Shown here: piece after piece, positions 12,101-63,637 of the stretch
Numbering within the stretch: the first letter of the stretch is position 1
How the letters are laid out: each line of letters starts with the position of its first letter
Assembly: GCA_905233975.1 (NCBI GenBank)
Contig: CAJOGD010000005.1
Location: 10,362 to 74,361, forward strand
From: an uncultured Alphaproteobacteria bacterium
Lineage (GTDB): Bacteria > Pseudomonadota > Alphaproteobacteria > Rs-D84
Reading direction: 5' to 3'
DNA: 64,000 nucleotides
Program-made: the position numbers and the translations under genes
Notes under the pieces: model-generated
Told to the model about the DNA's origin: nothing
Seen by the model: only the letters and a program-made list of their open reading frames with translations
Databases searched by the model: none

Positions 12101-15100
12101 GGATATACGTTCGATGGATACTATTATCCAGAAAACGGCAGCACCCAATATGTAGGCAGCGACTATGTATTGAATGCGACGAACGCCCTGGCTGTTATTA
12201 ATAGTGGCCAAACCGGCGGATACAATATCCCGCGCAAACTGTATGCGACGATGAATCATGGTTATAGCCTTGGCTGTTATAAAGTGAGTTTCAATAACAG
12301 TTGGCATGGTGGAACGCCGACAACCAGTACGTTAAGTTTCTATAAAAAGGGAACCAGTTGGTATGCGGGTACAGATTCAAATTGTACGGGCACACCAATC
12401 GCAAATCCAAGCGTGGCGAATGAATTACCAACCAAAACCAACGCAACGTTTACCGGGTATTATGATGAGTCTGGACCAGATTTGATGATTTTTGATGCAA
12501 ATGGTGCGGCAACCACGTACGCAAATATTTGGACGATTACAAGTGACACAACATTGTATGCGCAATATACATGCGACGCGAATGCACATCAAACATCGAA
12601 TGACGCATGTGTTGTGTGTACCGCGCCGACCGCATGTTGGGATAACAATACCGAACAATGCGTTGCATGTGCAGTAGTTGATCACACAATAACATTGGAC
12701 AAGAATGTTGGTGGTTTGCAAGGTGATGACAGCAGCCCGTCGATATTGTACACTGTGGAAGGTCAAGGTGTTTATACGGACCTTGCAACCGAAAATCCAT
12801 TTACCGCATTAACAGCGGTGCCGACCAAGTATGCAATCGTTACATTTAATCATTGTGACGGCACAAATGGGGCGTGTGATTCGACGGCCAATACCGAAAC
12901 CAAAAATTCTGATTTCCCATTCGTAGGTTTTTATGACACAACCTCCGCCATCAATGTTATATCAAACAATGGTAATTTGACCAATGATGGTTATACCAAT
13001 GCCATTGGGTTGCATGGTGATGCGACGTGGTATGCACGTTGGGGAATACATGGAATGATTGCCCATTGGCCGCAAAACCCAACGCGTTCCGGTTATAACT
13101 TTGTTGCATGGAAAGATGAACCTAACTGTACGGGTAATACGATGACATCGACCAGTTATATAGATACAGATACGACGCTGTATGCATGTTGGACGATGAA
13201 TACATCTTATGAATGCCAGGTGTATTGCGATGCGACGTTAAGTACATGTCCTTATCAAAATGCAAGCTGCGAATATGATGAAACGCAATACCAATCGGGA
13301 CATAACAATGGTGTTTCTGGGGCGCCATGCCTTGACGACGATGGGCATGAAATCGTCGCGGTGGCATGTCCGATTAGTAATGTCAGTTGCACACAGGCCG
13401 GGTATATCTGGGTATCAACAGACGAACAGTGCGAACAGTGCACATGCACACTGGGAACGGGCGTAGATACATGCACACCGTCTTCGGTTGGTAATCAGTG
13501 CACCGCGACGGGTTCGTGCGCCACCGGATACGTGAACTTTACACCGAATTGTTCCGGGACAACATGCGAACCTTACTGTGGTGCGAATACATTTACGGTA
13601 AATTACGAATGCGGAACACATGGTGCCGCGGCATCGGGCTATGACATGTATAACACCGCGACGTATGGTGCCGGGTACAAGGTCGCACATCAGTCATACA
13701 CCAGTTCCAATGTGATTGCACTGTGTAATCCGAACACCGGTTATGTGCTTGCGAATCCGACATGGAAATTAGAAGGCACATCTTACACCGGCAATACGGG
13801 TGATGTGATTGCGTCGTGGCAATATAGCATGAGTGCGCCAAAATTCATCGCACAGTATGATTGCGATACGGCGAATTTCTGGTTCCATAATTCATCAAGT
13901 GACACGTGCGTTCTGTGTAATGGCGCAAATGAATATTGGAATTCCACAACCGAAAGTTGCGGCCAATGCGGCGCGGGAACGTATCCGAATGCCGCACACG
14001 ATGCATGTATCAACGAAGGTCAATATGAAATAACCCTTAACAAGAATGTTAATTCTGGGGCGGTGCATGGGGTTGACGGGCAAACAACACTTTACACAGT
14101 GCACAATACCGGCGTTTATCGCGACGCGGCAAGAACGGCCGAAATGACGACCGCCGGCAATCCTTTGACCGAAGGAAATTTACCAAAGAAATATGCAATT
14201 GTGACATTCAATCACTGTGATGTTGATAACGATATACTCTGCACCAATCCGGCAAACACCGAAGACGTTGTTAATGCCTACTTTGCGTTCAATGGTTTCT
14301 ATCAAGATACGACCACAGGTTCAAAGTACATAAACGAGTATGGGTATATTACCGACGGTGCAAATGGCGGTATGACCGTTGGTGCGGGCTATACAGACAA
14401 CAATCATGTATGGTATGCGCACTGGGCCGCCCAGGGTATATTGAACGGATTCCCGGCCAATCCAACACGTGCGGGATATACTTTTGTTGAATGGCGGACG
14501 TTACCGAACGGAATGGGAACCGTTGTACCAAATAATCAGACATACACTGTGACGGCGGATACAACATTGTATGCAAATTGGGCTGCGAATGCATACGATA
14601 TACATTATGTGTTGAATGGCGGTGAAAACTATCATGGCGCCCCAACAAGTTATTCATATGGCACAGGTGCACAAATCAATGGCACCCCGACCCGCGACAA
14701 CAGTCAATTCATCGGTTGGTGTGATGATGCGGCTTTGACACAAAATTGCGACAAGGTGCGCGTAATAAGCGGAACCGAAACAGGCGACAAGACGTTCTAT
14801 GCGAAATGGACCTGCGATTGTGGTTATTCGGCAACCCAAAATGGCCAGGGTTGTGTTGCGAATACCATTACCGTAAATTATCAAAGCGAATATGGGACGG
14901 TGCCTGCATCGGGGACATGCACGTATAATGATGTTAATGGATTCACATTGGCGTCTGCAATTGACGCCCAGGGCCACGACTTTAGTGGTTGGGCGATGAA
15001 TTATCAACGCTTTAATGCCGGCCAAACCGTTGCGTGTAATTACACGACATTTGGTGTGTGCAATGGTTCTGTGAACGCCAACGCAATTTGGGGCGAAGCA

Positions 15101-51330: not shown

Positions 51331-52401
51331 ATGAATAAAACCGAACTATCTATTATTATCCCTGTCTATAACGGCCAAAGTTATATTAGGCGCTGCGTGA
51401 AAAGCATTATGCAACAGCAGGATGCAGACAAATACGAAATGATTATCGTTGATGATTGTTCAACCGATAATACCCTAAAAATTGCAAATTCCATCGCACA
51501 AAAATACAAAAACATTCGTGTTATACCTCATAAGAAAAACACCGGCGTTTCTGGGGCGCGCAATACTGGAATCGCGGCGGCGACCGGAAAATATGTGACC
51601 TTTGTTGATGCCGACGATTGGGTAGGGGCAGATTTATCCACAATTAGTGAATGTTTTGATGAAGGCCAAAGTTTTCCGATTGGGAAATTAAACAATTTTT
51701 TTCTGATAACCCCGGAACCCATAGAACTATCCGTATCACATTTTGACGACAAATATTTTGTGAACATGTTGCGCATTGCATACGATACAGATGCCGATGT
51801 TGTCCTTGGTGGCCGGATCGCCGTAAGTGACAAACATATCATAAGACGATACTTTTATGATTCTGTAATTGTTCGCGGCACCGATACAGATGACAAATGC
51901 GAACTATTGGTAGAGGCAGACCAACGAGAATTCGCGAACTCTGCACTATATAGTCATGATATGCTAAATGCGCACGATTTGCGTTTCATGGTAAATATGG
52001 ATTTAGACGAAGATATTTTATTCTGTATGCTTGCACTGTTGTATGCGAAAAAGGTTGCGACCGCACCAGACGTCACTTATTTTTACGACAATCATTCGGG
52101 AACATTATCCAATATACGCGATGACCGCATTTGTGCCGCCAAAACCAGACTTGCACAAGTTAAAAAATATGCCGTCTTGTTAAATACAATTGCGGAAGAA
52201 ATGTCGCAATATATGAATCCAAAAGTTTTTGGATATCAGATCCCACTTTACACTCGTCACGCAAGAACCAAAAACTTCGATTGTCTTGGCTACGCTTGCG
52301 TACAAAATGACTGCACCAACTGTCCTGTGGCAAGTGATATTTTGGCACACTGTAGAGGAAACATTCAAAGATATGGTCTTAATCGTTCCGGACGAATGTA
52401 A
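51331..52401 (+). CDS. glycosyltransferase family 2
   Basis: LSIIIPVYNGQSYIRRCVKSIMQQQ...VDDCSTDNT...FVDADD, the GT-A DxD signature. Confidence 0.8.
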   Translation: MNKTELSIIIPVYNGQSYIRRCVKSIMQQQDADKYEMIIVDDCSTDNTLKIANSIAQKYKNIRVIPHKKNTGVSGARNTGIAAATGKYVTFVDADDWVGADLSTISECFDEGQSFPIGKLNNFFLITPEPIELSVSHFDDKYFVNMLRIAYDTDADVVLGGRIAVSDKHIIRRYFYDSVIVRGTDTDDKCELLVEADQREFANSALYSHDMLNAHDLRFMVNMDLDEDILFCMLALLYAKKVATAPDVTYFYDNHSGTLSNIRDDRICAAKTRLAQVKKYAVLLNTIAEEMSQYMNPKVFGYQIPLYTRHARTKNFDCLGYACVQNDCTNCPVASDILAHCRGNIQRYGLNRSGRM

Positions 52402-53060: not shown

Positions 53061-53090
53061 GAAAAAACCACCAAACGGTGGTTTTTAAAA
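53061..53090 (-). terminator. displaced native terminator of tRNA-Gly
   Basis: On the minus strand, aaaaaccaccgtttggtggtttttt lies directly 3' of the 17-bp partial tRNA copy at the island's left end. Confidence 0.6.
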
Positions 53091-53693
53091 TTTGTGGTGC
53101 GAGCAAAGGGGAACATACCATATTTCCGTCCTGCCCCAGAAAACTAACATTTTTGCTAATTTTCAGCACCTAAATTCGTCAAAATGTCATACACTTTGTA
53201 TCACACTTTCTTGTTAATCTGATTATAATCCATTTTTTTAATAATGTAAACGGGTTTTTATGGTCGGGTAACCATTTTTACGTCTTTGTGGTCAAAAAAC
53301 ACATCCAATTTATAATTTTTTATCAACAAAGGTCTAAAAATTACGATTCTGGTATCATAATACCATAAAAATCAAAAAAAATGCAAAAAAATGACATTTA
53401 CAAAGTCGAAGAAGCCGAAAAAAAATAAAAAAAATAGTTCTATATAATATAGGGTGATTATTTTTACCTTATAAACGTAACCTATTTTTTATAGCCCCAA
53501 AAGCCACCATTTTTGGTCAAAACCAAATAATATCGAAAAATAAACCATACACGGATTTCAACCAGAAAATGTCAGTGTGATTATTTTTGTCGGTTTTTAA
53601 CATTTGGACCCTTTATGACGGCTTTTGGATTCCAATTAACATTTTCGGTCAGAAAACAACAAAACGACCGAATTTAAGTCAAAGGTATTAAAC

Positions 53694-54185
53694 ATGAGTA
53701 ATTATTTTGATGCAATTATATTTGCAAGTCAAAATCCCTGTTTCCCTGGGGATGAAAACGATACGTTAACACCTCAATTATTTAGAACTGCAAAATATTG
53801 TTTTGATAAGGATCTGGTAATTATAAAAACATTTTTAGAATGCAATCCATTGGATGATGATAAAACATTCTATCACATGATAAATTATATAAACAGTTTA
53901 CATCAATCCGTTGCAGTTGTATTTGATAGTGCTGAACAGTTGCCAACACATGATTTTGGTAAAATAGTTATATTGGATTTTATGCTGGATACGACCACAA
54001 TTGAAATACATTTGGTCAAAGAAAACGTGGCTTTGATAGACACACACAAACAATGTGAATTGAATCTGTGGTCAAAATATACCCACACAAACCCCAAACG
54101 AATGAAAAGTATTCGTGATGGCATAGACCTTTATAAAGAACTAAGATTAAATACGGATTATGGTTTACGTACCAATCTTGTCTAA
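53694..54185 (+). CDS. hypothetical protein (island cargo)
   Basis: 163-aa AT-rich ORF with no recognised motifs. Confidence 0.4.
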   Translation: MSNYFDAIIFASQNPCFPGDENDTLTPQLFRTAKYCFDKDLVIIKTFLECNPLDDDKTFYHMINYINSLHQSVAVVFDSAEQLPTHDFGKIVILDFMLDTTTIEIHLVKENVALIDTHKQCELNLWSKYTHTNPKRMKSIRDGIDLYKELRLNTDYGLRTNLV

Positions 54186-54631
54186 TTTATAACAGGTTGG
54201 GGTCTTGTAATGGTCGATTTATAATTTACAGCCCCCAAACAGATACTATTTTACCCAATTTTATTAAAAGACACAGTTTTAACCGTTTGTGTCTTATCAA
54301 CCAACGGAGTGATTATTTTGGGGTATCTGACCCCGGGTATGGTGAAAAAACGCCTTTACGTTACGGTGCGTATAAATATCACACCTGATAAGTATTTGAT
54401 GGTGTGTGTAAACGACATTATTGGACATTATGGACTTAATGAATAGACGTCTTGAAAAATAATGTCGGGCATTATCGGTATAATTTATAAATGGGCACGA
54501 CACCCAAGTAAACAATTACACCTATAATTAAAATAAAAATATAATAAAAACAATACATTATAACAATACACATTCCCCATAATTTAATAACACACATTAC
54601 TTTATGGGGCACAACATACAGGAATAATAAA

Positions 54632-55153
54632 ATGAAAAAATTCATAACAGACACTTTTTATACAAAACAACAATATCTTAAAATACTTCCACAACTTATT
54701 GACTTCTTAAACGAAAATAACCCCACACATTATTTGTGTATTCGTTTACCACTTTTTTCTGAAACATCTGATATGTATAAAGCACTTGATATATTGCACC
54801 CCATTTTATTGGACCTTGAACGTATATTAGGTGGGCTACATTGGAACAGACACCACTTACGTTTTCGTGGTGTAATCGAACTGGGTAAAAAACACGTGTG
54901 TCATTTTCATATTCATTTAACAGCACCCAATCACACATTGGAACAAATACAACGTGCTTGTGAAATTATTATGCACTTACATAAAATGCCGTCCAGGGCA
55001 ATAGACGTGCAAAACATAAACCGAACACCTGAAAATCTTGCTGGGTATAACAGTAAAGAAATTTTAACAGATAACCACCAACATTTTGACTCACTTAGGT
55101 TATTTACATCTGAACAATTATTGAATATTCCGTATAAAAGCCCAAAACAATAA
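54632..55153 (+). CDS. HUH-endonuclease-like protein (rolling-circle Rep / relaxase-like)
   Basis: HVCHFHIHL (His-hydrophobic-His) followed ~40 aa later by AGYNSKEI (Y-x-x-K), the motif II/III spacing of HUH Rep proteins. Confidence 0.4.
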   Translation: MKKFITDTFYTKQQYLKILPQLIDFLNENNPTHYLCIRLPLFSETSDMYKALDILHPILLDLERILGGLHWNRHHLRFRGVIELGKKHVCHFHIHLTAPNHTLEQIQRACEIIMHLHKMPSRAIDVQNINRTPENLAGYNSKEILTDNHQHFDSLRLFTSEQLLNIPYKSPKQ

Positions 55154-55160
55154 TAAATTG

Positions 55161-55355
55161 TTATTTTTGAACGTCATGCACCCATTTACCATTTGAATCA
55201 TATACGTGGTTATGGGTGCTGAAAGTTCCACCACTGGTAATAACAAAATCGGATGTATATGATACCAATTTACCATTTACACGACAATATTCACGATTGG
55301 AACTATCGTAAAGTCCAACTTGATTTCCAACCTGACGAACATACATAATTTTCAT
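55161..55355 (-). CDS. small hypothetical protein
   Basis: About 64 aa from MKIMYVRQVGN, with an internal YDSSNREY / YDSNGKWV repeat. Confidence 0.3.
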   Translation of the reverse strand: MKIMYVRQVGNQVGLYDSSNREYCRVNGKLVSYTSDFVITSGGTFSTHNHVYDSNGKWVHDVQK

Positions 55356-55486
55356 ATAAAATCCTTTTGTTTGAACGATTATATAATATGAAAATGGTGG
55401 TCGCAAACGGGTAATTTAATAAAATTTGTTGATTTACACAAGGCACTATATCATACTTCTATACGTATAATAAAGAAGGGTCAAAT

Positions 55487-56251
55487 ATGGTAAAAATAAA
55501 AGTTACGAATGCCTGTGCACATTTTTTTGAGAACACAAATCATCTGGCTGAATTTTTTTATTACATAATTTGTACCACACAACAAGTTGATGAAATGAGA
55601 ATTTGTGCCGTCAAAGCATTAGCTAAGATACACGAACAAGAACCAGCAAAAGAAGAATTAAAACATGCGGCAACAGATAAATTGAAAAAATATTTCGGAC
55701 TAATATTGGAACTGTGGCTGTGTCGTTTGGTAGAATGTTATGAAAATTATTTGTCGTCTATCCTTAAAGATGTTTTTTTATGTTGCCCACAAATTTTAAA
55801 ATCATCAGAAGTGGTAAAACTAGATGAGGTTTTGAAATATAAAACAATGGATGATTTTGTTACAGAATTAACAGAAAAAAAAGTAAACGAATTATCGTAT
55901 TCGTCTTTTGACGATTTGTTTGATTTTTTTGATAAAAGATTAGGAGTAAAAATTATTGACGAAAGCAATAAAAGCATCGTAAGGGAAGCAATTGAAATCA
56001 GAAATATATCTGTTCATAATGATTGTGTTATTAACAGAAGATATATTAATAAATTACAATTAAACGAAAATCTTCTTGGGAACAGAAAAGATATAGAACC
56101 TGAATATTTAAATAATGTTATTGATGTTTTGTATAATAATGTCATGGAACTTGATGATAAGTTGATAAAGAAGTTCGAAATCAAGAATTGCAAGGTTGTG
56201 GGAGATGAATTTGTTAAACGTATAATGGAACAAAAAACTGATAAAAAGTAA
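55487..56251 (+). CDS. hypothetical protein with HEPN-like Rx4H motif
   Basis: IEIRNISVHND contains R-x4-H in a predicted all-helical protein. Confidence 0.35.
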   Translation: MVKIKVTNACAHFFENTNHLAEFFYYIICTTQQVDEMRICAVKALAKIHEQEPAKEELKHAATDKLKKYFGLILELWLCRLVECYENYLSSILKDVFLCCPQILKSSEVVKLDEVLKYKTMDDFVTELTEKKVNELSYSSFDDLFDFFDKRLGVKIIDESNKSIVREAIEIRNISVHNDCVINRRYINKLQLNENLLGNRKDIEPEYLNNVIDVLYNNVMELDDKLIKKFEIKNCKVVGDEFVKRIMEQKTDKK

Positions 56252-56374
56252 GTCCTTTACCAATATTTTTTAATAAAAAGAGACGACTGAAAATTTACAC
56301 ATCGTCCCATTTTTGTTACTATTATAATACAAAAATACCCTGTCGCATACTAAAAAATGAAACTTATTACAATT

Positions 56375-56947
56375 TTATTTATCTGTTTTAATGGCTTTAC
56401 TTATCAACTGTGCTATCAGGGTAAAAATTAAAGAAAAAATTATTCCCGCTAAAATTTTTCCCGTTATGTTATCGACTTTGTTTTTTATGTTTTCAGGTGT
56501 TGTATTTTTTGTGTTATTATCTTGATAAACAGGTCTATCTTTAAATCTTTCACTACATTCATCTTTTACTTCTGTATGGAAAGTCGCCAGATAAGAATCA
56601 ATTTCGTTTCCTGTCATATTTTTTAATTTTTTCCAGTCAACTTTGTCCATCATAGTCAAAGTATAACAATCACACACTTTTTCAAGCATATAAAGTGTTT
56701 CGTTATCAAGTGGTTGTTTTTGTTTAATTCTTTGTTTGCCATTATCAATACAGGTTTTATACAGTGTATTATAAAAAGAAACTTTGACTTGTTTTTGTTC
56801 CTTTTGTTCTTGGGTAAACTCTGTGTCGTTATTATGTAAATCTAAATTTTTCAATTTACTGATATTTTGTGAAAAAGTAAATCCGTCCTGAGCATTTGCA
56901 CACAGGGTATTAAAGACCAAAAAGACCATAAATACAATTTTTGACAT
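56375..56947 (-). CDS. secreted protein with C-terminal TM anchor (hypothetical)
   Basis: Signal peptide MSKIVFMVFLVFNTLCANA and C-terminal helix ILAGIIFSLIFTLIAQLI. Confidence 0.45.
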   Translation of the reverse strand: MSKIVFMVFLVFNTLCANAQDGFTFSQNISKLKNLDLHNNDTEFTQEQKEQKQVKVSFYNTLYKTCIDNGKQRIKQKQPLDNETLYMLEKVCDCYTLTMMDKVDWKKLKNMTGNEIDSYLATFHTEVKDECSERFKDRPVYQDNNTKNTTPENIKNKVDNITGKILAGIIFSLIFTLIAQLISKAIKTDK

Positions 56948-57089
56948 AATAATACCTTATATTTGTACAGTTTTTGCACCGATTATAAATACTTTTAGGA
57001 ATCAAATCAACAAACTTTAATAACTTTTTGATTTTTTTCCTTTTATACATTATACTTCTGATGTGATTAGTATTTAAAAAGGTTTACCT

Positions 57090-57873
57090 ATGAAAAAACA
57101 TTTATTACTTGTATTAAAAATTATTTGTGGTGTATTGGTCTTATTGTGGTTGGTAGATAATTTTATAACTAATTCAAACAGAAAAAAAACAACAATCTGT
57201 TTCTCAACAGTATTTGCTTGAACAAACTTGTGTTAATGATTGTGTTAATGGTTTTAAAGATAAAAAATATAACGATATAACAAAAAAATTTAATTTTAAT
57301 CAGGAAGACATTGAAAATTATTGTAAATGTGCATGTCAAGAAAGTATTAAAAATGGCAAAAATCCAGACGATTCATCAGAAACATGTGTTAATAAATATT
57401 TACATCCTGGTCGTGTTACAGATGAATTTGATAAATGTGTTCGATTAGGAACTAGTAAATATAACGAAGATATTTTTTGGGAATCTTTTGCAAAACAGCA
57501 AAATATGACAGTAGAACAAGTTAAACAAGCGTTATATCCCATGGACTTTAAATTATATGTTTCTTGTATTTGCGAACACAAATCGGCAGATGTATGTGGA
57601 AAATTGGTCGGTGCACAAGCACTGTTAGATGCAACTTTTGAACAATGTATCAAAGTAAATAAAGAACAATTAACAATTTCTTTTGAGCAAATAAAATCAC
57701 GTAACCCACAAAAAGAAACTGATTTATTGCAATCAAAAGAACAAGACATTAAAAATTATTGTAAATGTTTTATAAATAAGCAACAAAATATCAAAAAAGA
57801 GACTCTTTCTGTAATAGAAAAAGCAGATAAATTAAAAGTTGCAGAAAAAGGGTGTGTTGATTTATACTTCTGA
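57090..57873 (+). CDS. Cys-rich secreted protein interrupted by an A8 homopolymer (frameshifted / phase-variable candidate)
   Basis: The signal-peptide ORF 57090-57222 (MKKHLLLVLKIICGVLVLLWLV...) and the Cys-rich ORF 57214-57873 are in frames 0 and +1. A8 at 57182-57189 lies in the overlap, and deleting one A fuses them into a ~262-aa protein. Confidence 0.5.
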
Positions 57874-57889
57874 ATACAAAGGATTAACA

Positions 57890-58393
57890 ATGAATAGATT
57901 TATAAAAGTTGGTTTATGTTTTGCTGTTTTTTGTGTGATTATTGGGTTTGGATATCATTTTTATAGTCAACACAAAAAAATGGTAGAATATAAAAAATTA
58001 TTTGATGATTGTGATATAACTTGTAAAAATATGTCTGCGGGAGAAATACAAAACATTCGTCTTGGTATTAAGTCAGATGTAAAAAACTTAAAGGAAAATA
58101 TTGGTAGACCCATTAGTGACGAACAGTTAGGTAGTATAAAAAAGGCAAAAGAATATGATATATATATGCCAGATGGTTATTGGAGAGAACTTTGTACATG
58201 CAATTGTGATGTAGAAGCAAAAAACCAAACAGGTTTTTTTGACCCAAAGACAGAATCAGAAATAGATATTGTTGCAGCACAAGCGGATAAATCCGAATAC
58301 TATTTTAACTGTATACAAAACGTTAAAAATAAATATTTCAAAACCGCTTCAGAAAAAAAGAAAGAAGCGGATAGAGAGCGTGATGGTATATAG
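57890..58393 (+). CDS. membrane-anchored hypothetical protein
   Basis: MNRFIKVGLCFAVFCVIIGFGY signal-anchor. Stop overlaps the next start. Confidence 0.45.
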   Translation: MNRFIKVGLCFAVFCVIIGFGYHFYSQHKKMVEYKKLFDDCDITCKNMSAGEIQNIRLGIKSDVKNLKENIGRPISDEQLGSIKKAKEYDIYMPDGYWRELCTCNCDVEAKNQTGFFDPKTESEIDIVAAQADKSEYYFNCIQNVKNKYFKTASEKKKEADRERDGI

Positions 58394-58991
58394 ATTGTCT
58401 ACTGGGTATTTTAATAAACTGGCACAATTAAAAATTCAACAGATATTTCCTGAATGGAAATTAGAATTGGTTGACAAACCTGATTTACAGGATGAAACAA
58501 ATAATATCGGAATTGAAGTTACTATTGCAAAAGATAAAGTAGATGGAATTTTTGATAGTGTATGGAATGAGTGGGCAGGGAAAGGAATTACATCAAACGA
58601 ATTTCGGGACAAATTTACAAATACTTATTTTAAAGAAAAAATTATTCCTGATATGGAACATCCTGTATGTGTCAAAGTGAACGGTAACTTAGATTCCGTA
58701 ATCATGAAAATTTTGGGTGCAATTAAAACAAAATCAAAAAAATTTAATGGTTACAAAAAATTTAATAAAAATGGATTATTCATTTATTGTCCTGAACCTT
58801 TATGGGAAGAACAATTTTCTGTGTTAAAACAACGTATATATGAAGGAATTTACCCATTTGATTTTTTTATAATAAGTATGACAAATAAACTGCTTTTGAT
58901 TGAAAATAATGAACTTAAAATATACGACATTGATTTTGATAAAATTGAACAATTAACACAAGAATCTTTAGATTTTTCACAAAATCATTAA
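58386..58991 (+). CDS. hypothetical protein
   Basis: Starts MVYRLSTGYF, overlapping the previous stop (ATGGTATATAG). Confidence 0.4.
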   Translation, partial: VYRLSTGYFNKLAQLKIQQIFPEWKLELVDKPDLQDETNNIGIEVTIAKDKVDGIFDSVWNEWAGKGITSNEFRDKFTNTYFKEKIIPDMEHPVCVKVNGNLDSVIMKILGAIKTKSKKFNGYKKFNKNGLFIYCPEPLWEEQFSVLKQRIYEGIYPFDFFIISMTNKLLLIENNELKIYDIDFDKIEQLTQESLDFSQNH

Positions 58992-59105
58992 ATTCTCCGT
59001 TTCGGACCCATATAGAACCATACAGAAACCATTAAAATTTGACACAGGATACCCTGAAACACGTTTTTATGGGGATTTATTATTGTTTGATTAAATGGTG
59101 TTTCT
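58991..59105. repeat. direct repeat, left copy (flanks ATPase-nuclease module)
   Basis: aattctccgtttcggacccatatagaaccatacagaaaccattaaaatttgacacaggata is 57/61 identical to 61157-61217. A further tttattattg.ttgatta..tggt segment is also shared. Confidence 0.85.
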
Positions 59106-59125
59106 GTTAAGGTTTCTGATATAAA

Positions 59126-59659
59126 CTATAACATAGACAAGATCTCATTTTCATTTAATTTTTTACATTTAATAACTTTAAATTTGTTGCGAATATGTTT
59201 CAGTTCTGGTTTCCTGCTATACATCATGCCTTTATTTATATTAATCCCAACACTTTTAAACATATCTTTACAAATCAACAACAATTGATACGGTGATTTA
59301 TTTGAATTTAATTTGGAAGAAACTTGTAAAATAAAAGCACCTAAAGACATATCATCAATATGTGAATATACCGATTTTATTTTTTTTAACAACTCTTCAG
59401 GGTTTATGTTTTTTATTGGTTGCGCCTTTATTTCTATAGCCAATAAGTTTTTGCCTTTATATTTATATATACAATCAACGTCTGGTCCCTTTTTGCCACA
59501 CAAATCTTTACCTTGAATAAAAATTTTTTGTTTCAACAACGGTTCGGTTTCAAAATCGTTACATTCCCAATTAGATTCCTTATTTTCTGCACAACAACGT
59601 TCACACAATGAACAATGTGTACATTTTTTTCTTGGCAATGATTCAGATTTTTCTAACAT
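59126..59659 (-). CDS. small Zn-ribbon + PD-(D/E)xK-like nuclease candidate (effector of two-gene module)
   Basis: N-terminal CTHCSLCERCC Cys cluster. GPDVD ... (17 aa) ... AIEIK matches the PD-(D/E)xK arrangement. Start ATG overlaps the ATPase stop (TAATG). Confidence 0.45.
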   Translation of the reverse strand: MLEKSESLPRKKCTHCSLCERCCAENKESNWECNDFETEPLLKQKIFIQGKDLCGKKGPDVDCIYKYKGKNLLAIEIKAQPIKNINPEELLKKIKSVYSHIDDMSLGAFILQVSSKLNSNKSPYQLLLICKDMFKSVGININKGMMYSRKPELKHIRNKFKVIKCKKLNENEILSML

Positions 59660-60957
59660 TAATCTATATCCGGTAATAAACTTTCCGCATCATAAAAAGA
59701 TTTGAATATCACATCTTCTTTTTCAGCAAAATTTTCCACGTTATCTATTATGCCCTTTTTTAAGTCTGCAAAGTAGAAATTGACCTTTGACTCCAATTTT
59801 TTAACATGAGCAAAATCTTGCAAAGCATTTATAAGTATTGAACTATGCGTTGTTAAGAGAACAGAGACATCATTTTCAAGCAAAGTTATCAATAATTCTG
59901 CTAACCTGACTTGCCATTCTGGGTGTAGATGATTTTCTGGTTCATCAAAAATAAACATGTGGTCAGATGACAACATGCCATATCTTGCCATTTTTTGTAA
60001 AATACCAAACATTTTTTCGCCAGATGCCATATTGCCAACATATAAATTATTATCTGTATTAGCTGGCACAAAGAAAAAATCCTGTTTGTCGGGTATATAA
60101 ACCAATTCGCCTTTTAATAAATCAGATAAATCTTTATATACTGATTTACACAAAGGATTCTGTGTTTTTTGGAAATTTACCTTCAATTTATCCAAAAGGT
60201 CTTTCCAATAATACGGTATATTAATGGCATTTGCCACCTGTAATAATAAAGGTGTTTCTATAAAAGTAACTTCTGGTAAAATACGTTGTTTCAGAGTTTC
60301 GTTAATTTTTATCGACAAACGTTCAGAAAATGGTAACACATTTGCATTATTAGAAATTTTATATTCCAACAATTTATCGCCATTATTATCAAGTACCACT
60401 TCTGACGTAGCGTGAGTTCCTAAATTATTAACTTGAAATCTGAACATTTGGTTATACATAAATTCCAAAGAATTTTTGATTTCTTCCTGTTCTGATATGT
60501 CTGTAAAAACACCCATTAAGTCATTTAATGATTTTTTTGCAGATAACTTGCTTTTTTCATCCAAAGTTAAAAATGTATCAATTAAATTGATTTGAGCAAT
60601 AATTATCCTATGTGCTTCGGAATAGTTATCTTCTTTTAACAATCTTACCAAAGTTTCTGCAAAACTAGCATTAAAACGTTCTAATAAAATACTTACATCG
60701 TGATTTCTTGATTTAGCATCAGATTTTTGCAAATTATTTTGAATACTATAAAACAATGTTCTGCACATACTTTCTACAAGCATTCTGCGGTTTTCAAAAA
60801 CAATTCTTTTGCTATTGCTAACGGACTTAATTATGGTATAAACAGTTTTGCCAACCGTGCTTTTACCTGTCCCATTAGGTCCCGCTATAACATTTAACCC
60901 ATTCAGAGTTATATCTGCTTTTTTGATATAGCCAACATTTTTCAGGGTTATTTTCAT
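59659..60957 (-). CDS. ABC-type ATPase (AAA_21/AAA_15 family, SMC/RecF-like), defence-island type
   Basis: Walker A GPNGTGKST, signature ASGEKMFGIL, Walker B MFIFDEPENHLHP, H-loop LLTTHSS, with a ~250-aa helical insertion between the Walker A and signature motifs. Confidence 0.7.
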   Translation of the reverse strand: MKITLKNVGYIKKADITLNGLNVIAGPNGTGKSTVGKTVYTIIKSVSNSKRIVFENRRMLVESMCRTLFYSIQNNLQKSDAKSRNHDVSILLERFNASFAETLVRLLKEDNYSEAHRIIIAQINLIDTFLTLDEKSKLSAKKSLNDLMGVFTDISEQEEIKNSLEFMYNQMFRFQVNNLGTHATSEVVLDNNGDKLLEYKISNNANVLPFSERLSIKINETLKQRILPEVTFIETPLLLQVANAINIPYYWKDLLDKLKVNFQKTQNPLCKSVYKDLSDLLKGELVYIPDKQDFFFVPANTDNNLYVGNMASGEKMFGILQKMARYGMLSSDHMFIFDEPENHLHPEWQVRLAELLITLLENDVSVLLTTHSSILINALQDFAHVKKLESKVNFYFADLKKGIIDNVENFAEKEDVIFKSFYDAESLLPDID

Positions 60958-61156
60958 CGTAAAAATCCTATTGTTCCATTGTATGATAATGTATTTTTTT
61001 TACTTGACAAGCCTATTATATCATTTTTTGTAAAAAAAAACAGGGGTTAATTAAAATTTAATTAAATTCCCCTTTGTTGCCAGTAATTATATCACATTTT
61101 AACAAAAAAGTCAAATTTTTATTGTTTCTGCGCTGGTTTGTTAGAAAAAAATCGTA

Positions 61157-61265
61157 AATTCTTCGTTTCGGACCAATATATAACCATACAGAAACCATTA
61201 AAATTTGACACAGGATAAGTTAAACCACCATTGGATTGGTGGTTTATTATTGATTATGGTTTTAC
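61157..61265. repeat. direct repeat, right copy
   Basis: aattcttcgtttcggaccaatatataaccatacagaaaccattaaaatttgacacaggata plus the hairpin aaaccaccattggattggtggttt, a probable int terminator. Confidence 0.85.
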
Positions 61266-61302
61266 AAATCTGGAATTAAATCTAAATTGTTTGTTTCTAC
61301 AA

Positions 61303-62814
61303 TTACAATTTTTTCATTGTTTTCGTCCATTTATCAAAATATGGTTGTAAAAAGTCATAATTCAACTTATCAATTTGTTCTTTTATCTGGGGTAAAGTGT
61401 GATTTGAATACGATTGTTCCATCGTGTTTTTGCCTTCCCAACCGATAATATCGTTAATAAAAGATTGGATTATTCCTGCATTTTGTAATCTTAAACTCGC
61501 GTTTTTGCGGAACGAATGAAAATCTAACTGGTCACCATTTTTTGATTTAACCCCGATTTCTTTCAAAAATACCGCCAAACCACGTGACCAATATTTATTT
61601 TCAAAATTGCCTGTTTTTGTCTTACATTTTGGAAAAATGAAGTCATCATCTGTGGTATTTAATTTTTCTTTTCTGGCTTTAACCCAATCAACAAAACCCA
61701 TATTCAACAACTGCGATGGTATCGGAACAATACGTTCAGATGCTTCGGTTTTAAGGTGTTTTACAGGGTGATTTTGTCTAAAATAAATACAATCAAGCCC
61801 ATCCTGGTTAATAATGTCACCATATTGCAAGGTTGTTGCTGCATTTATTCTGGCACCGGTAAACAAACCAATCAAAGCCGTCCAAAATTCGTCCGGGTTA
61901 GTTTTAAAGTGGTCGTATTTCGGGTCAAACATTTCCAATAATTGACTTTCGGAATACGGTAAATGTGGTTTTTGTTGGTGTTTTGGTGTTTTTGGTAAAT
62001 CAGGCAACAAATTTATAAAATTTTCTTGGTATGAATCTGGGGCTAAAATATGTGCTTGTTTTATCAAATCACGAATATATCTGACGTATTTTCGTTTGGC
62101 ATCACCCTTAATTTGATACCCTTTGATATTTTCTGCTATATTTTGGATTATTTCCGGATTATTAAAATCATCATAATCACAATCTGGGTTCAAACCCACT
62201 TCAGATAACATTTTTATAATACTGTTGTTTTTTCTGTCGGTTTCTGCTTTTTGGTTATTGGACTTTTTTAACATTGATTTCAAAACTTCACCAATTTTAT
62301 ATTTTTTGGTTTGTTTTGGTTGTTGAATTTGAGCACTTGCCAATAATTGTTCCACATTATCCACTTTGGCCAATAAAGCATTTATTTGTGGAATAACAGA
62401 TTTTAATTGTCCCAACATAATTTTGTCCCCGGGGTCAAGTTGGTTTTGTTGTATCAAATCTAACTTTTCGGACATGTTTTTTAATTGTTTTAAAACCATA
62501 GGGTTTGTTTTATCCGATATCCTGCGGGCTGCAAACCCGGTAAAATTACCACCAGTGCCACTATAATCAAATATTACCTGATTCCATAACGTATTGAAAT
62601 CATTCATAAATTGTATCGTGTCAAAATGTTCAACGTTTTCCGCCATAATTTTTGCTTTTTCCCTTGCTTCGTAATAATTGTAGGTATGTAACGATTTACA
62701 AAAGAACCGTCTTTTACCGTTTTGTCTTGGTAATTCCATTGTAAAATAAAAAATATTGTTTCGCAACCGGATGTATTTATCGGTATTACAATATGTCATA
62801 CACTTTTTTATCAT
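61303..62814 (-). CDS. int: tyrosine site-specific integrase (phage integrase family)
   Basis: C-terminal catalytic domain with LIGLFTGARINAATTL (Arg I), HSFRKNASLRL (H-x-x-R) and a terminal Tyr region (GWEGKNTMEQSY). Adjacent to the tRNA attachment site. Confidence 0.85.
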   Translation of the reverse strand: MIKKCMTYCNTDKYIRLRNNIFYFTMELPRQNGKRRFFCKSLHTYNYYEAREKAKIMAENVEHFDTIQFMNDFNTLWNQVIFDYSGTGGNFTGFAARRISDKTNPMVLKQLKNMSEKLDLIQQNQLDPGDKIMLGQLKSVIPQINALLAKVDNVEQLLASAQIQQPKQTKKYKIGEVLKSMLKKSNNQKAETDRKNNSIIKMLSEVGLNPDCDYDDFNNPEIIQNIAENIKGYQIKGDAKRKYVRYIRDLIKQAHILAPDSYQENFINLLPDLPKTPKHQQKPHLPYSESQLLEMFDPKYDHFKTNPDEFWTALIGLFTGARINAATTLQYGDIINQDGLDCIYFRQNHPVKHLKTEASERIVPIPSQLLNMGFVDWVKARKEKLNTTDDDFIFPKCKTKTGNFENKYWSRGLAVFLKEIGVKSKNGDQLDFHSFRKNASLRLQNAGIIQSFINDIIGWEGKNTMEQSYSNHTLPQIKEQIDKLNYDFLQPYFDKWTKTMKKL

Positions 62815-62947
62815 TTTTCACCCCTTTGTTTTTTGAAGAAAGTGAAAATTAAAAGTGTTGGATTTCTAGGGTTTTCTGTAATTTGGTGTGTTCCAAACCC
62901 AAAAATAAAAATCCAACAAAAGTGTTGGATTTCTAACATTTTAACTT

Positions 62948-63024
62948 TGGTGCGAGCAAAGGGGCTCGAACCCTCGACCTCAACCTTGGCAAGGTTGCGC
63001 TCTAGCCAACTGAGCTACGCTCGC
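62948..63024 (-). tRNA. tRNA-Gly (GCC)
   Basis: Reverse complement GCGAGCGTAGCTCAGTTGGCTAGAGCGCAACCTT-GCC-AAGGTTGAGGTCGAGGGTTCGAGCCCCTTTGCTCGCACCA. The 3' 17 nt are duplicated at 53095. Confidence 0.9.
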
Positions 63025-63100: not shown

Positions 63101-63157
63101 GGCGGTATGGCTTTTCATTCTAGAACCATTTCCATGGTTGCAGCAGTTTCAAGAAAC

Positions 63158-63637
63158 TCATCGCTGTGCGTTTATCGGCAAACGCATGGCCGCAACGTGG
63201 ACAAACGATGAATGGTGCGATTGTCGCCTTGTACTGTTTATAAATAATAAAAAATCCATATCATTTTGACGTTCTTGTTCTGTTAAAGAACGACCATATT
63301 TTATAAGTAATTTTTCTGCGAGAACACGCTGTTCTGAAGTCAATGTTTTAATAGATAAGCCTAACAATTTCATTATATCTCTATCAGTATACCGGTGCAA
63401 TTTTTGTACTGTATAAGACGCGTTTTTTCCAACAAACCGCTGATCAGCACCTACTTCTGAGTCATAAAAGGCTCTCAAATCTCCGACATTTGATAACGGA
63501 TAACCCACTATCTGCACTCCATTCATTTCTGCTATGATAGGCTCGTTAAGCTCTTTGGCACAATGCAAGAGATGCGATAATGCACCATTAACGGTCCAAA
63601 CTTGCATATTGTATTCCCAAGAATTTTGTTGTTCCAC
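63158..63637 (-). CDS. hypothetical protein
   Basis: 159-aa ORF outside the island. No family recognised. Confidence 0.4.
   Translation of the reverse strand: MEQQNSWEYNMQVWTVNGALSHLLHCAKELNEPIIAEMNGVQIVGYPLSNVGDLRAFYDSEVGADQRFVGKNASYTVQKLHRYTDRDIMKLLGLSIKTLTSEQRVLAEKLLIKYGRSLTEQERQNDMDFLLFINSTRRQSHHSSFVHVAAMRLPINAQR

Follow-up and report, generated by a model that had tools for sequence, protein, structure and literature searches.

Genes and features at the tRNA-Gly locus

We analyzed a window of 64,000 nucleotides (the whole stretch of DNA under study) from a genome of Candidatus Enterousia, a gut alphaproteobacterium that has not been cultured and whose genomes are below 1 Mb (PMC12306168). 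The window contains an intact tRNA-Gly(GCC) gene, and a copy of its last 17 nt lies 9,836 bp away (Table 1). This 17-mer, TGGTGCGAGCAAAGGGG, occurs exactly twice, even when up to two mismatches are allowed; 100 shuffles gave no match, and none is expected by chance. The preliminary description of this DNA had read the two copies as att repeats of an AT-rich integrative island and had named gene duplication as another possible source. Because identity to the tRNA stops at the 17-mer on both sides, the distal copy is no second tRNA but a fragment of the 3' end, and ARAGORN detected no second tRNA-Gly in the 64-kb window. The composition is likewise not uniform across the distal boundary. GC content between the repeats is 29.8% versus 46.4% in the left flank (positions 1-53094), a drop of 16.6 points, and the highest 1-kb window of the island (0.334) lies below the lowest of the left flank (0.379). 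The step is sharp at the distal end only, since the right flank has 38.8% GC.

Table 1. Coordinates of features at the tRNA-Gly(GCC) locus.
Feature	Position	Strand	Remarks
Host native tRNA-Gly terminator hairpin, outside the island	53063-53086	-	AAAAACCACCGTTTGGTGGTTTTT; terminator scan
Distal att repeat, 17-bp copy of tRNA-Gly 3' end	53095-53111		Exact match; no tRNA call
Conserved non-coding end	53112-53693		87% mean column identity over 4 elements (integrases ~57% identical)
Backbone protein, 163 aa	53694-54185	+	Shares 56-62% identity with its counterparts in L086, L104 and the L094 group
Small conserved reading frame (about 45-81 aa)	54228-54443	+	Start codon uncertain; between 163-aa and Rep genes
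HUH (Rep-like) endonuclease-domain protein, 173 aa	54632-55153	+	Backbone
Backbone protein, 64 aa	55161-55355	-	Most conserved protein of the family
Weak HEPN candidate, 254 aa	55487-56251	+	Single Rx4H (RNISVH, residue 172)
190-aa protein	56375-56947	-	Signal-peptide-like N-terminus; C-terminal hydrophobic segment
Cys-rich protein, 219 aa	57214-57873	+	14 Cys (6.4%); internal duplication
167-aa protein	57890-58393	+	N-terminal membrane anchor (hydrophobic residues 1-19); 8 Cys; L003 gene call
202-aa protein	58383-58991	+	L003 gene call; no Pfam match
D1a, second copy of ~110-nt post-integrase segment	58981-59089		Direct repeat with 61148-61255
ATPase partner, putative PD-(D/E)xK nuclease, 177 aa	59126-59659	-	
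ABC-type (AAA_15/AAA_21) ATPase, 432 aa	59659-60957	-	Anti-phage nuclease-NTPase class
D1b, conserved segment after integrase gene	61148-61255		Usual backbone position
Tyrosine integrase, 503 aa	61303-62814	-	PF00589 2.7e-11; phrog_1 integrase 3e-21
P-arm	62851-62942	-	Two direct copies of AGAAATCCAACAC (62855-62867, 62922-62934)
Island-borne terminator hairpin adjoining tRNA end	62906-62935	-	Terminator scan
Proximal att repeat, last 17 nt of tRNA-Gly	62948-62964	-	
Intact tRNA-Gly(GCC)	62948-63024	-	ARAGORN call; Rfam in agreement

Two terminator-like hairpins accompany the repeats. The host hairpin, just beyond the distal repeat, folds at -13.0 kcal/mol (z -3.95); the island-borne hairpin, formed by the second P-arm motif copy, folds at -15.3 kcal/mol (z -3.84) and is conserved in family members L085, L086, L088, and L094. 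A related species (L005; AlaS 95% identical) carries another insert, decayed and 2.9 kb long, between the same two 17-mers; this insert retains a truncated integrase start and the island hairpin with compensatory changes, and the same host hairpin lies just outside its distal repeat. In four more distant relatives (L019, L021, L024, and L031) the terminator directly follows the tRNA, as a CCACC..GGTGG hairpin in L019 and L021, and in L031 the flanking glycosyltransferase has a homologue at a distance of 110 bp. These observations bear out the earlier proposals that the native terminator has been displaced past the distal repeat and that the island supplies its replacement. A comparison with empty sites in close relatives was also suggested then; within the species, the flanking genes recur unchanged on four other metagenome contigs, and the site was occupied in four of four. 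An empty tRNA-Gly site of the same species was not found, the empty-junction pattern had no match in JGI metagenomes, and the circular (attP) junction was not found in IMG/VR.

A shared backbone at several tRNA genes

Related elements occupy tRNA-Gly(GCC), tRNA-Gly(CCC), tRNA-Pro(TGG), and tRNA-Lys(TTT). Their backbone comprises an integrase of ~500 aa, the ~110-nt segment D1, the 64-aa protein, the HUH Rep-like protein, a 163-aa or DUF927 protein, and a 580-nt non-coding end; arm motifs and the hairpin are also common to members, and the cargo varies. The tRNA-Pro elements measure 7.0 kb with 19-bp repeats (L086, L087) or 8.3 kb with 17-18-bp repeats (L094, L095, L097), and the tRNA-Lys elements (L088-L090) measure 7.1 kb with 24-bp repeats. 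Both sets have a host terminator immediately beyond the distal repeat and the same island hairpin behind the tRNA, and their arm motifs stand at equal offsets. At tRNA-Gly(CCC) the integrase is 98% identical and the island end identical, and in L096 the same element is found at a non-tRNA junction. The layout of the sister elements at tRNA-Pro and tRNA-Lys, like the L005 insert and the terminator-adjacent tRNA of the distant relatives, lends independent support to the integrative-island reading.

The integrase gene starts 133 nt from the tRNA, where the preliminary description had placed it, and is transcribed inward from the tRNA-proximal end. It has 334 homologues; residues R322, K352, H433, R436, W459, and Y469 are invariant, and the catalytic set is intact. 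The protein belongs to a distinct ~500-aa lineage, with a conserved N-terminal domain that weakly resembles DUF6538. No excisionase was recognized in the island.

At the opposite end, the non-coding segment holds the inverted arm motif CCCAGAAAACTAAC (53135-53148), in a position conserved among elements, together with the palindrome TGGTATCATAATACCA, and may act as an origin or in regulation. The 163-aa protein has no match in Pfam, PHROGs, NCBIfam, PADLOC, or PDB, and in the tRNA-Lys members a 612-aa DUF927 protein takes its place (as the DUF927 neighbor in L088). The small reading frame matches, by tblastn, an 81-aa product of L095 with 92% identity and L086 and L104 with 58%. Between elements that share 57% integrase identity, the 64-aa protein retains 87-90%; its sole match is a weak SH3-like one (E 0.009).

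The 173-aa protein (Rep173) is 71-97% identical in sister elements. Its own match to PF23343 (REP_ORF2-G2P; E 3e-4) scores 21.4 bits, below the gathering score of 27.8, and its AF2 model was too poor for a fold test. At the family level, the HUH Rep-like label given earlier is supported: the protein has 110 representative homologues, H91 and H93 (HxH), Y139 (YxxK), E83, and W71 are invariant, and 35 of 38 homologues match PF23343.

D1b contains the integrase terminator hairpin (61221-61246) and an invariant ~60-nt block. D1 is single-copy in 12 of 12 other elements examined, and the additional copy here, D1a, is most similar to the L094-type segment (94%). We read D1a as a recombination scar, and because the duplicated D1 flanks the ATPase pair, the island is probably a mosaic derived from recombination of two family members.

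Cargo genes

The preliminary description had listed a HEPN-motif protein, secreted Cys-rich proteins, and an ATPase-nuclease pair as cargo. Of the pair, the ATPase half is firm. The 432-aa protein matches AAA_21 (4.7e-17) and AAA_15 (2.1e-15) in Pfam, HEC-02A (7.6e-26) and PD-T4-4_A (5.8e-25) over its full length in PADLOC, and phrog_14430 (1e-42); its PDB relatives are RLI, OLD, and AriA, and Walker A, Walker B, signature, and H-loop motifs are all present. We firmly assign it as a predicted ABC-type defense ATPase. The 177-aa partner always adjoins the ATPase and carries an N-terminal CxxCxxCxxC cluster and a D60xD62...E76-I-K78 motif, invariant in four homologues (60-80% identity). No profile or PDB match was obtained for it (Pfam, PADLOC, and PHROGs among the searches), its AF2 model was unusable (pLDDT 42), and the nuclease half accordingly depends on the D..ExK motif. 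The pair recurs in family member L091 and beside a P4-type integrase in L093, and the cargo of other members includes an N6-methylase, a PD-T4-5/Abi-like protein, and a superinfection-immunity protein.

The 254-aa protein could be a HEPN protein: one Rx4H motif and a PADLOC match to RTasHEPN (E 4.2e-4, residues 121-213) point this way, but the match is weak, with no Pfam or PDB match and no homologue in the other fetched elements. The secreted, Cys-rich character held in part. The 190-aa protein, with five Cys and no family match in Pfam, PADLOC, or PHROGs, has the one signal-peptide-like N-terminus (hydrophobic 19-mers at residues 1-19 and 160-178), whereas the 167-aa protein has a membrane anchor and the most Cys-rich, the 219-aa protein, has neither, with no signal peptide evident. 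The gene for the latter holds an internal 26-nt repeat at 57305 and 57743.

Integration, mobility, and relation to known systems

Our analysis confirms the integrative island. The stretch 53095-62947 (one att copy plus the 9,836 bp, 9.85 kb in all) is very probably a site-specific integrative element of the Candidatus Enterousia genome, and it belongs to a family of small mobile islands, conventional in kind but not described before, that carry a replication gene and probable anti-phage genes. From its anatomy and the family comparison, we infer that the integrase recombined the tRNA-Gly(GCC) gene, at its 3' end, with an attP in which arm motifs flank a 17-bp copy of that end. The tRNA-Gly remains intact because the element brings its own copy of that end, and the transcript would keep a terminator because a hairpin and T-run sit right behind this copy. 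The host's own terminator has been left 9.85 kb from the tRNA. The backbone looks made for excision as a circle, probably followed by Rep-initiated (rolling-circle-type) replication or mobilization. Exchangeable cargo occupies the space between D1 and the 64-aa gene.

How such an element might travel admits several readings. A phage satellite would be induced by a helper, replicate through its own Rep, and be packaged in helper capsids, its defense-like cargo interfering with phages. PICI- and P4-like satellites indeed share with the island an integrase, a replication gene, a defense cargo hotspot, and small size. The tRNA site, the placement of integrase and replication genes at opposite ends, the DUF927 proteins adjoining the Rep gene in tRNA-Lys members, the kinship of the cargo to anti-phage systems, and a layout common to PICI-like tycheposons (10.1101/2020.12.28.424599) also fit. 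We nevertheless consider a satellite unlikely: PHROGs and Pfam searches gave no capsid, terminase, packaging-redirection (capsid-remodeling), or repressor gene, no family member appeared in IMG/VR by protein or by conserved hairpin, and Rep173 had no match in the phage collection. Similarly doubtful is an integrative mobilizable element (IME), in which the HUH protein would be a relaxase nicking an oriT in the non-coding end and the element would ride on a conjugative system. The combination of an integrase, a single small HUH protein, and long conserved non-coding DNA is typical of IMEs, and Rep-like relaxases serve in some of them (available text of PMC5704250 and PMC6499999); the available text of PMC2440964 describes pSAM2-type AICEs that join tRNA integration with a rolling-circle Rep. 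A profile search of the island, however, yielded no coupling protein, FtsK-like translocase, or type IV secretion gene, and the small Enterousia genomes (<1 Mb; PMC12306168) also speak against it. Among transfer functions overall, no relaxase accessory, coupling protein, capsid, or packaging gene was found in the element.

Occupancy in all five contigs of the species, the lack of attB in JGI metagenomes and of attP in IMG/VR, and the decay in place seen in L005 would suit an immobile remnant, that is, a single ancestral integration now fixed, with backbone genes as relics. This reading is a little less probable again, given that the integrase catalytic residues and all backbone reading frames are intact, the att repeats are perfect, and independent samples yield proteins of 99-100% identity. 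Near-identical integrases and Reps also occur at tRNA-Gly(CCC), at tRNA-Pro, and at the non-tRNA junction, which argues for recent movement within the family. An integrated ssDNA (inovirus- or plectrovirus-like) prophage seems highly improbable. The resemblance of the Rep to PF23343, which covers ORF2/G2P of filamentous phages, and the small hydrophobic and Cys-rich proteins recall such phages, but Pfam and PHROGs gave no Zot-like morphogenesis ATPase or coat-protein match, and phage collections gave no match. The membrane and Cys-rich genes are missing from sister elements and are therefore cargo rather than core; the conserved core consists of the integrase, 64-aa, Rep, and 163-aa genes only.

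Among known systems, classical tRNA islands and prophages (lambda/P4-type) likewise use the tRNA 3' end as att core, reconstitute the tRNA, and have arm-type repeats, a tRNA-adjacent integrase, and anomalous GC; the island differs in its distinct ~500-aa integrase lineage and its conserved replacement tRNA terminator. According to the available text of PMC2440964, pSAM2-type actinomycete ICEs share the ~10-kb size, tRNA target, tyrosine integrase, and rolling-circle Rep, whereas the island has no FtsK/SpoIIIE-like Tra and no recognized Xis, and its Rep family and host phylum are unrelated. The ATPase pair resembles the HEC-02 and PD-T4-4 systems of the nuclease-NTPase class (10.1101/2024.01.29.577857, 10.1101/2025.07.10.664194) as a two-gene operon on a mobile island, with its ABC-type ATPase (PADLOC E about 1e-25) preceding a small D..ExK-motif protein. 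The partner differs in that it has no match to HEC-02B/NERD or to any model in PADLOC or Pfam and bears the extra N-terminal Cys cluster, and the defense role, deduced from sequence, is putative.

In design the element appears closest to the tycheposons of Prochlorococcus and other streamlined marine bacteria (10.1101/2020.12.28.424599), a likeness judged on layout, cargo, and host. Tycheposons carry a primase or helicase where the island has a domain-only HUH Rep (DUF927 occurs in some members only); the island also differs in its gut alphaproteobacterial host, in showing no excisionase, and in a family size of 7-10 kb, at the small end of the range. Both insert beside a tRNA, of which a partial repeat is left, and both place an inward-facing tyrosine recombinase and a small replication module at opposite ends, with exchangeable adaptive or anti-phage cargo in the middle. 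In both, a single tRNA can have copies that are tandem or decayed, and the hosts of both have streamlined genomes.

The island and its tRNA-Gly(GCC) site

We confirmed every detail of the island's anatomy as given in the preliminary description. The att repeat is an exact 17-mer, the reverse complement of the last 17 nt of tRNA-Gly(GCC) with the encoded CCA included. It occurs exactly twice in the window, still twice when two mismatches are allowed, and in none of 100 shuffled sequences (chance expectation 0). Similarity ends at once on either side of both copies, so the distal 17-mer is a tRNA 3' fragment and not a second tRNA. A second full tRNA-Gly-like sequence, which would trace the repeat to gene duplication, was looked for and rejected: the shared part is just 17 nt, and no tRNA is called at 53095. 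The expected low-GC insert with a composition step is evident in the 1-kb profile. The 9,836 bp between the repeats have a GC content of 29.8%, compared with 46.4% for positions 1-53094, and the island maximum (0.334) lies below the lowest value in the left flank (0.379). To the right of the tRNA, the adjoining kilobase has a GC content of just 38.8%.

A terminator scan recovered both proposed hairpins, the displaced native terminator immediately outside the distal repeat and an island-supplied hairpin adjoining the tRNA. Both fold well beyond shuffles, with energies of -13.0 kcal/mol (z -3.95) for the host hairpin and -15.3 kcal/mol (z -3.84) for the island hairpin, which probably acts as a terminator. 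This design lets the targeted, probably single-copy tRNA gene retain its 3' end and have a terminator.

A 14-mer is also found near both island ends in the same orientation. Its proximal copy corresponds to integrase codons KKCMTY on the opposite strand, and its distal copy lies within an invariant block of the non-coding end; the pair may reflect chance or a common protein-binding site.

Features of the island and its surroundings (window positions; slashes separate the parts of a junction)
Feature	Position or sequence	Strand	Remarks
2,885-aa ORF	9149-17806	+	
Glycosyltransferase gene	51331-52401		GC ~0.40-0.42; between alaS and DUF7424 gene
Host terminator hairpin	53086-53063	-	AAAAACCACCGTTTGGTGGTTTTT
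Distal att repeat	53095-53111		TGGTGCGAGCAAAGGGG
14-mer, distal copy	53184-53197		ATGTCATACACTTT
Conserved extra small frame	about 54228-54443		
D1a	58981-59089		
ABC-type ATPase	59659-60957	-	Walker A, Walker B, signature and H-loop motifs
D1b	61148-61255		
Tyrosine recombinase, 503 aa	61303-62814	-	PF00589 2.7e-11; phrog_1 3e-21
14-mer, proximal copy	62793-62806		ATGTCATACACTTT
Island hairpin	62935-62906	-	TAGAAATCCAACACTTTTGTTGGATTTTTA, then TTTTT
Proximal att repeat	62948-62964		TGGTGCGAGCAAAGGGG
tRNA-Gly(GCC)	62948-63024	-	ARAGORN; Rfam concurs
127-nt duplicate	63121-63247	-	
159-aa ORF	63158-63637		
Predicted attB junction	...GGTGGTTTTTAAAATTTG/TGGTGCGAGCAAAGGGG/CTCGAACC...		Synthetic sequence
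Predicted attP junction	...ATATGGTATGTT/CCCCTTTGCTCGCACCA/AAGTTAAAATG...		Synthetic sequence

Integrase, tRNA targets and family backbone

The tyrosine integrase described as abutting the tRNA is indeed encoded at that end of the island, and its catalytic R-K-H-R-H/W-Y set is intact; 14 diverse homologues share R322, K352, H433, R436, W459 and Y469 without exception. We found 334 integrase homologues of about 500 aa each, and the few with a source name are labeled as from Alphaproteobacteria MAGs. Their contexts follow one architecture, with the same att layout throughout the family. Each element starts at a tRNA. Behind it come a conserved hairpin whose sequence includes AGAAATCCAACAC (the motif recurs 67 nt beyond), an inward-facing integrase gene, a conserved segment of ~110 nt (D1) and variable cargo. 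Then come backbone genes for a 64-aa protein, a 168-173-aa Rep-like protein and a 161-163-aa protein (or a 612-aa DUF927 protein), and a long conserved non-coding stretch with an inverted arm motif, the tRNA 3'-end repeat and the host terminator. The arm motif CCYAGAAAWCYAAC stands at equal offsets in all members.

Conservation exceeds that of the integrase in the 64-aa protein (87-90% identical among members), the Rep (71-97%), D1 (88-94%) and the 580-nt non-coding end (87% column identity), and an extra small frame is conserved as well. Profile searches gave no informative match for the 64-aa and 163-aa proteins, nor did PDB for the latter. Pfam and PHROGs revealed no genes in the island for an excisionase, a relaxase accessory, a translocase, capsids or packaging, and searches of IMG/VR by integrase, Rep and conserved hairpin returned no family members at the sensitivities used.

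tRNA targets of family members
tRNA	Repeat	Element	Members and remarks
Gly(GCC)	17 bp	9.85 kb	Window
Gly(CCC)			L085; integrase 98% identical, island end identical; contig stops before distal end
Pro(TGG)	17-19 bp	7.0 and 8.3 kb	L086/L087; L094, L095, L097
Lys(TTT)	24 bp	7.1 kb	L088-L090

Between Gly, Pro and Lys members, integrase identity is 74-98% in the first 50 residues and 28-46% over residues 100-250, a pattern that would fit unchanging arm sites with shifting core specificity. The family offers a natural series on how a tyrosine integrase switches its tRNA target, from Gly(GCC) and Gly(CCC) to Pro and Lys, with the arm sites and N-terminal domain nearly constant. The tRNA-Gly(CCC) of the L085 contig (9794-9867) adjoins the integrase there, and its 3' end, TCCCTTCGCCCGCACCA, agrees with the GCC att core at all but 3 of the 17 positions. 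Because the two glycine tRNAs share the terminal CGCACCA, comparison of their ends suggests that crossover may be located within these last ~7 nt. On another contig, L096 (around 16600-16760), non-tRNA DNA abuts the 8.3-kb element known from L094 (...CCGACCGACCAGA/GATAAAATG; junction TTTACCGACCGACCAGA/GATAAAATG), with KAP-NTPase and AAA_21 genes alongside, an insertion of the secondary-site or tandem-island type.

Rep-like protein, cargo and the D1 segment

An exhaustive profile search with the 173-aa Rep-like protein (Rep173) gave 110 representative homologues. In an alignment of 38, W71, F78, E83, H91, H93 and Y139 are invariant and map to 'THFLT', HxH(U) and YxxK motifs. Together, a THFLT-type motif, HxH(U) and YxxK form the signature by which single-tyrosine HUH Rep proteins are recognized. 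The HUH Rep-like label holds on this alignment, in which PF23343 (REP_ORF2-G2P) is matched by 35 of the 38 sequences (best E 1e-8); Rep173 alone scores 21.4 bits, under the Pfam cut-off of 27.8. Longer members of the Rep family have no additional Pfam domains. Rep173 had no usable match among PDB sequences and no tblastn match in plasmid and phage collections; its AF2 model (pLDDT 52) was too poor for fold comparison, and the Rep alignment too divergent for a profile scan of IMG/VR. We infer Rep-dependent replication or mobilization from the conserved non-coding end.

The best PADLOC matches of the island ATPase are HEC-02A (7.6e-26) and PD-T4-4_A (5.8e-25, residues 1-383). The anti-phage systems HEC-02 and PD-T4-4 both couple such an ATPase with a PD-(D/E)xK nuclease (10.1101/2024.01.29.577857; 10.1101/2025.07.10.664194). 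The island ATPase likewise matches the A component, whereas its 177-aa partner matches no B component (NERD/PD-(D/E)xK nuclease). The partner gene overlaps the ATPase gene and has four homologues only, with an ATPase adjoining in all three neighborhoods examined. Its product has an invariant CxxCxxCxxC cluster and D60xD62...E76-I-K78, no match in PADLOC, Pfam, NCBIfam, PHROGs or PDB, and an AF2 model (pLDDT 42) too poor for fold comparison. Of the proposed ATPase-nuclease pair, the ABC ATPase is therefore upheld by its motifs and PADLOC matches (~1e-25), and the nuclease half is without profile, PDB or fold support, just the residues D60xD62...E76xK78 pointing to it. The same pair occurs behind the integrase of a family member at tRNA-Pro (L091/L092), where the ATPase is 97% identical, and, in L093, beside an HTH_17 protein and a P4-type integrase, so it constitutes a portable module. 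Its role is probably phage defense.

Other cargo assignments in the preliminary description stood in part. The proposed HEPN protein (254 aa) has one Rx4H motif (RNISVH), a weak PADLOC match to RTasHEPN (E 4.2e-4, 18.5 bits) and nothing usable among PDB sequences. Of the proteins called "secreted" and Cys-rich, a signal-like N-terminus together with a hydrophobic C-terminal segment marks one and an N-terminal anchor another; the one richest in Cys (14 residues) shows neither feature. We found no homologue of the 254-aa or the Cys-rich/membrane proteins in sister elements by which to gauge conservation of the HEPN motif. Cargo in other members includes N6-methylase/Eco57I-like, PD-T4-5/Abi_2-like and superinfection-immunity proteins, and the elements appear to import anti-phage genes. 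Candidates for testing are the ABC-ATPase pair with its unclassified partner, the domain-only HUH Rep and the 64-aa protein.

D1, which holds an invariant ~60-nt block (TATCCTGTGTCAAATTTTAATGGTTTCTGTATGGTT...GTCCGAAACGAAGAATTTA), is present once in each of 12 of 12 other elements and twice here, where the copies flank exactly the ATPase and 177-aa pair. D1b is 89% identical to L091, as is, at 86%, a 3-kb block from the 3' part of the integrase gene through the ATPase pair; D1a resembles the L094 and L086 types (94% and 92%). Judging from these identities, the simplest reading is that the duplication would have come from recombination between two family members. Two copies could have been left, for example, by a deletion within a tandem array or by a circle bearing D1 that inserted in Campbell fashion. 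Comparison with L091 gave no support to a mosaic breakpoint within the integrase gene, as protein identity in the C-terminal half is just 54-80%. D1 was also considered as a structured RNA and rejected, with no Rfam match and fold z-scores near 0.

Host, site occupancy and relation to known systems

The closest relatives of the flanking AlaS are in MAGs labeled Candidatus Enterousia or "uncultured Alphaproteobacteria" from human, rumen and horse gut. Genomes of Enterousia (order Rs-D84) are mostly <1 Mb (PMC12306168); the window of this small-genome lineage includes a 2,885-aa ORF. Exact-protein look-ups of both genes flanking the island yielded four further metagenome contigs of the same species, all carrying the same island (proteins 99-100% identical), two of them breaking at or near att sites, and no empty site. 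The exact empty-junction pattern had no match in JGI metagenomes, and an exact-junction scan of IMG/VR gave no circular attP junction. Present-day excision of the island is probable, and recent movement has occurred within the element family.

Occupancy of the tRNA-Gly site varies between species. The nearest other species, represented by L005 (AlaS 95% identical), has both 17-mers (12843-12859, 15735-15751) and shares with the window its DUF7424 neighbor and the host terminator just beyond the distal copy. Its insert is a different one, 2.9 kb with a RhuM/Fic protein and two unknown proteins. Because this insert retains a degenerate arm motif, a tRNA-adjoining hairpin (ATCCGGCGCAAACGTCCGGAT) homologous to that of the window with compensatory changes, and a truncated integrase start (MFKKCKANCQAN*), we regard it as a decayed relative at the same site. 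Four more distant loci (L019, L021, L024 and L031) have a single 17-mer with a terminator hairpin within about 12 nt after the tRNA, and the flanking glycosyltransferase of the window has a homologue in L031 at a distance of 110 bp from the tRNA. The comparison with empty sites thus succeeded among related genomes, where the tRNA directly precedes its terminator, but not within the same species.

Several other differences surround the tRNA. In L021 and L019, about 110-170 nt 3' of tRNA-Gly, the 3' end of the tRNA or its downstream flank recurs in short second copies (e.g., CTTTGCTCGCACCAAAGTTT in L021), which may be scars of past integration and excision. The glycosyltransferase gene of the window is missing from L005, where the DUF7424 gene directly follows alaS; the homologue beside tRNA-Gly in L031 is 38% identical. 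Just 5' of tRNA-Gly, the final ~35 codons of a gene for a 324-aa membrane protein (...PFIVCPRCGHAFADKRTAMSFLKLLQPWKWF*) recur as a 127-nt duplicate, 88% identical to its partner copy outside the window (8861-8987 in L004), and the two bracket a 1.5-kb low-GC insert of two genes (238 aa and the 159-aa ORF). A different 478-aa gene occupies this spot in L005, so the upstream side of the tRNA is also variable, with flanking repeats of ~110-130 nt.

The island apparently represents an undescribed family of a well-known kind of element, and in the papers surveyed that mention Enterousia we found no account of its mobile elements. We consider it unlikely, if worth stating, that these elements form a lineage not yet described, replicative and tycheposon-like and specific to gut Alphaproteobacteria with reduced genomes (Rs-D84/Enterousia), with a conserved cis/trans backbone, a diversified integrase core-binding region and cargo exchange at D1. 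The backbone would comprise D1, the 64-aa protein, the domain-only HUH Rep and the 580-nt end; diversification of the integrase middle (core-binding) region would give different tRNA targets; and cargo would be swapped at D1, perhaps when small circles insert in a Rep-mediated (rolling-circle-type) or Campbell-type manner. Such exchange would account for the direct repeats of ~110 nt on either side of the ATPase pair.

Unlike PICIs and other phage satellites, the island has no capsid-hijacking genes (terS, size redirection, packaging) and no helper-responsive repressor, PHROGs and Pfam matching the integrase and ATPase only. Unlike pSAM2-like AICEs, it has no FtsK/SpoIIIE-type Tra in a Pfam scan confined to its ten principal ORFs, all longer than the 64-aa gene. 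Closest in design are tycheposons (10.1101/2020.12.28.424599), which likewise have an inward-facing integrase beside a tRNA at one end and a partial tRNA at the other. In their published description, tycheposons encode primases, helicases or polymerases (10.1101/2020.12.28.424599), whereas the replication gene at the opposite end of the island is HUH Rep-like, and DUF927 occurs in tRNA-Lys members only. Enterousia and its relatives are uncultured gut bacteria whose reduced genomes still keep an active-looking family of tRNA-targeting elements, each amounting to ~1% of the host genome. Current ideas are not overturned, since what the family adds to the tycheposon/genomic-island theme is a new group of hosts.
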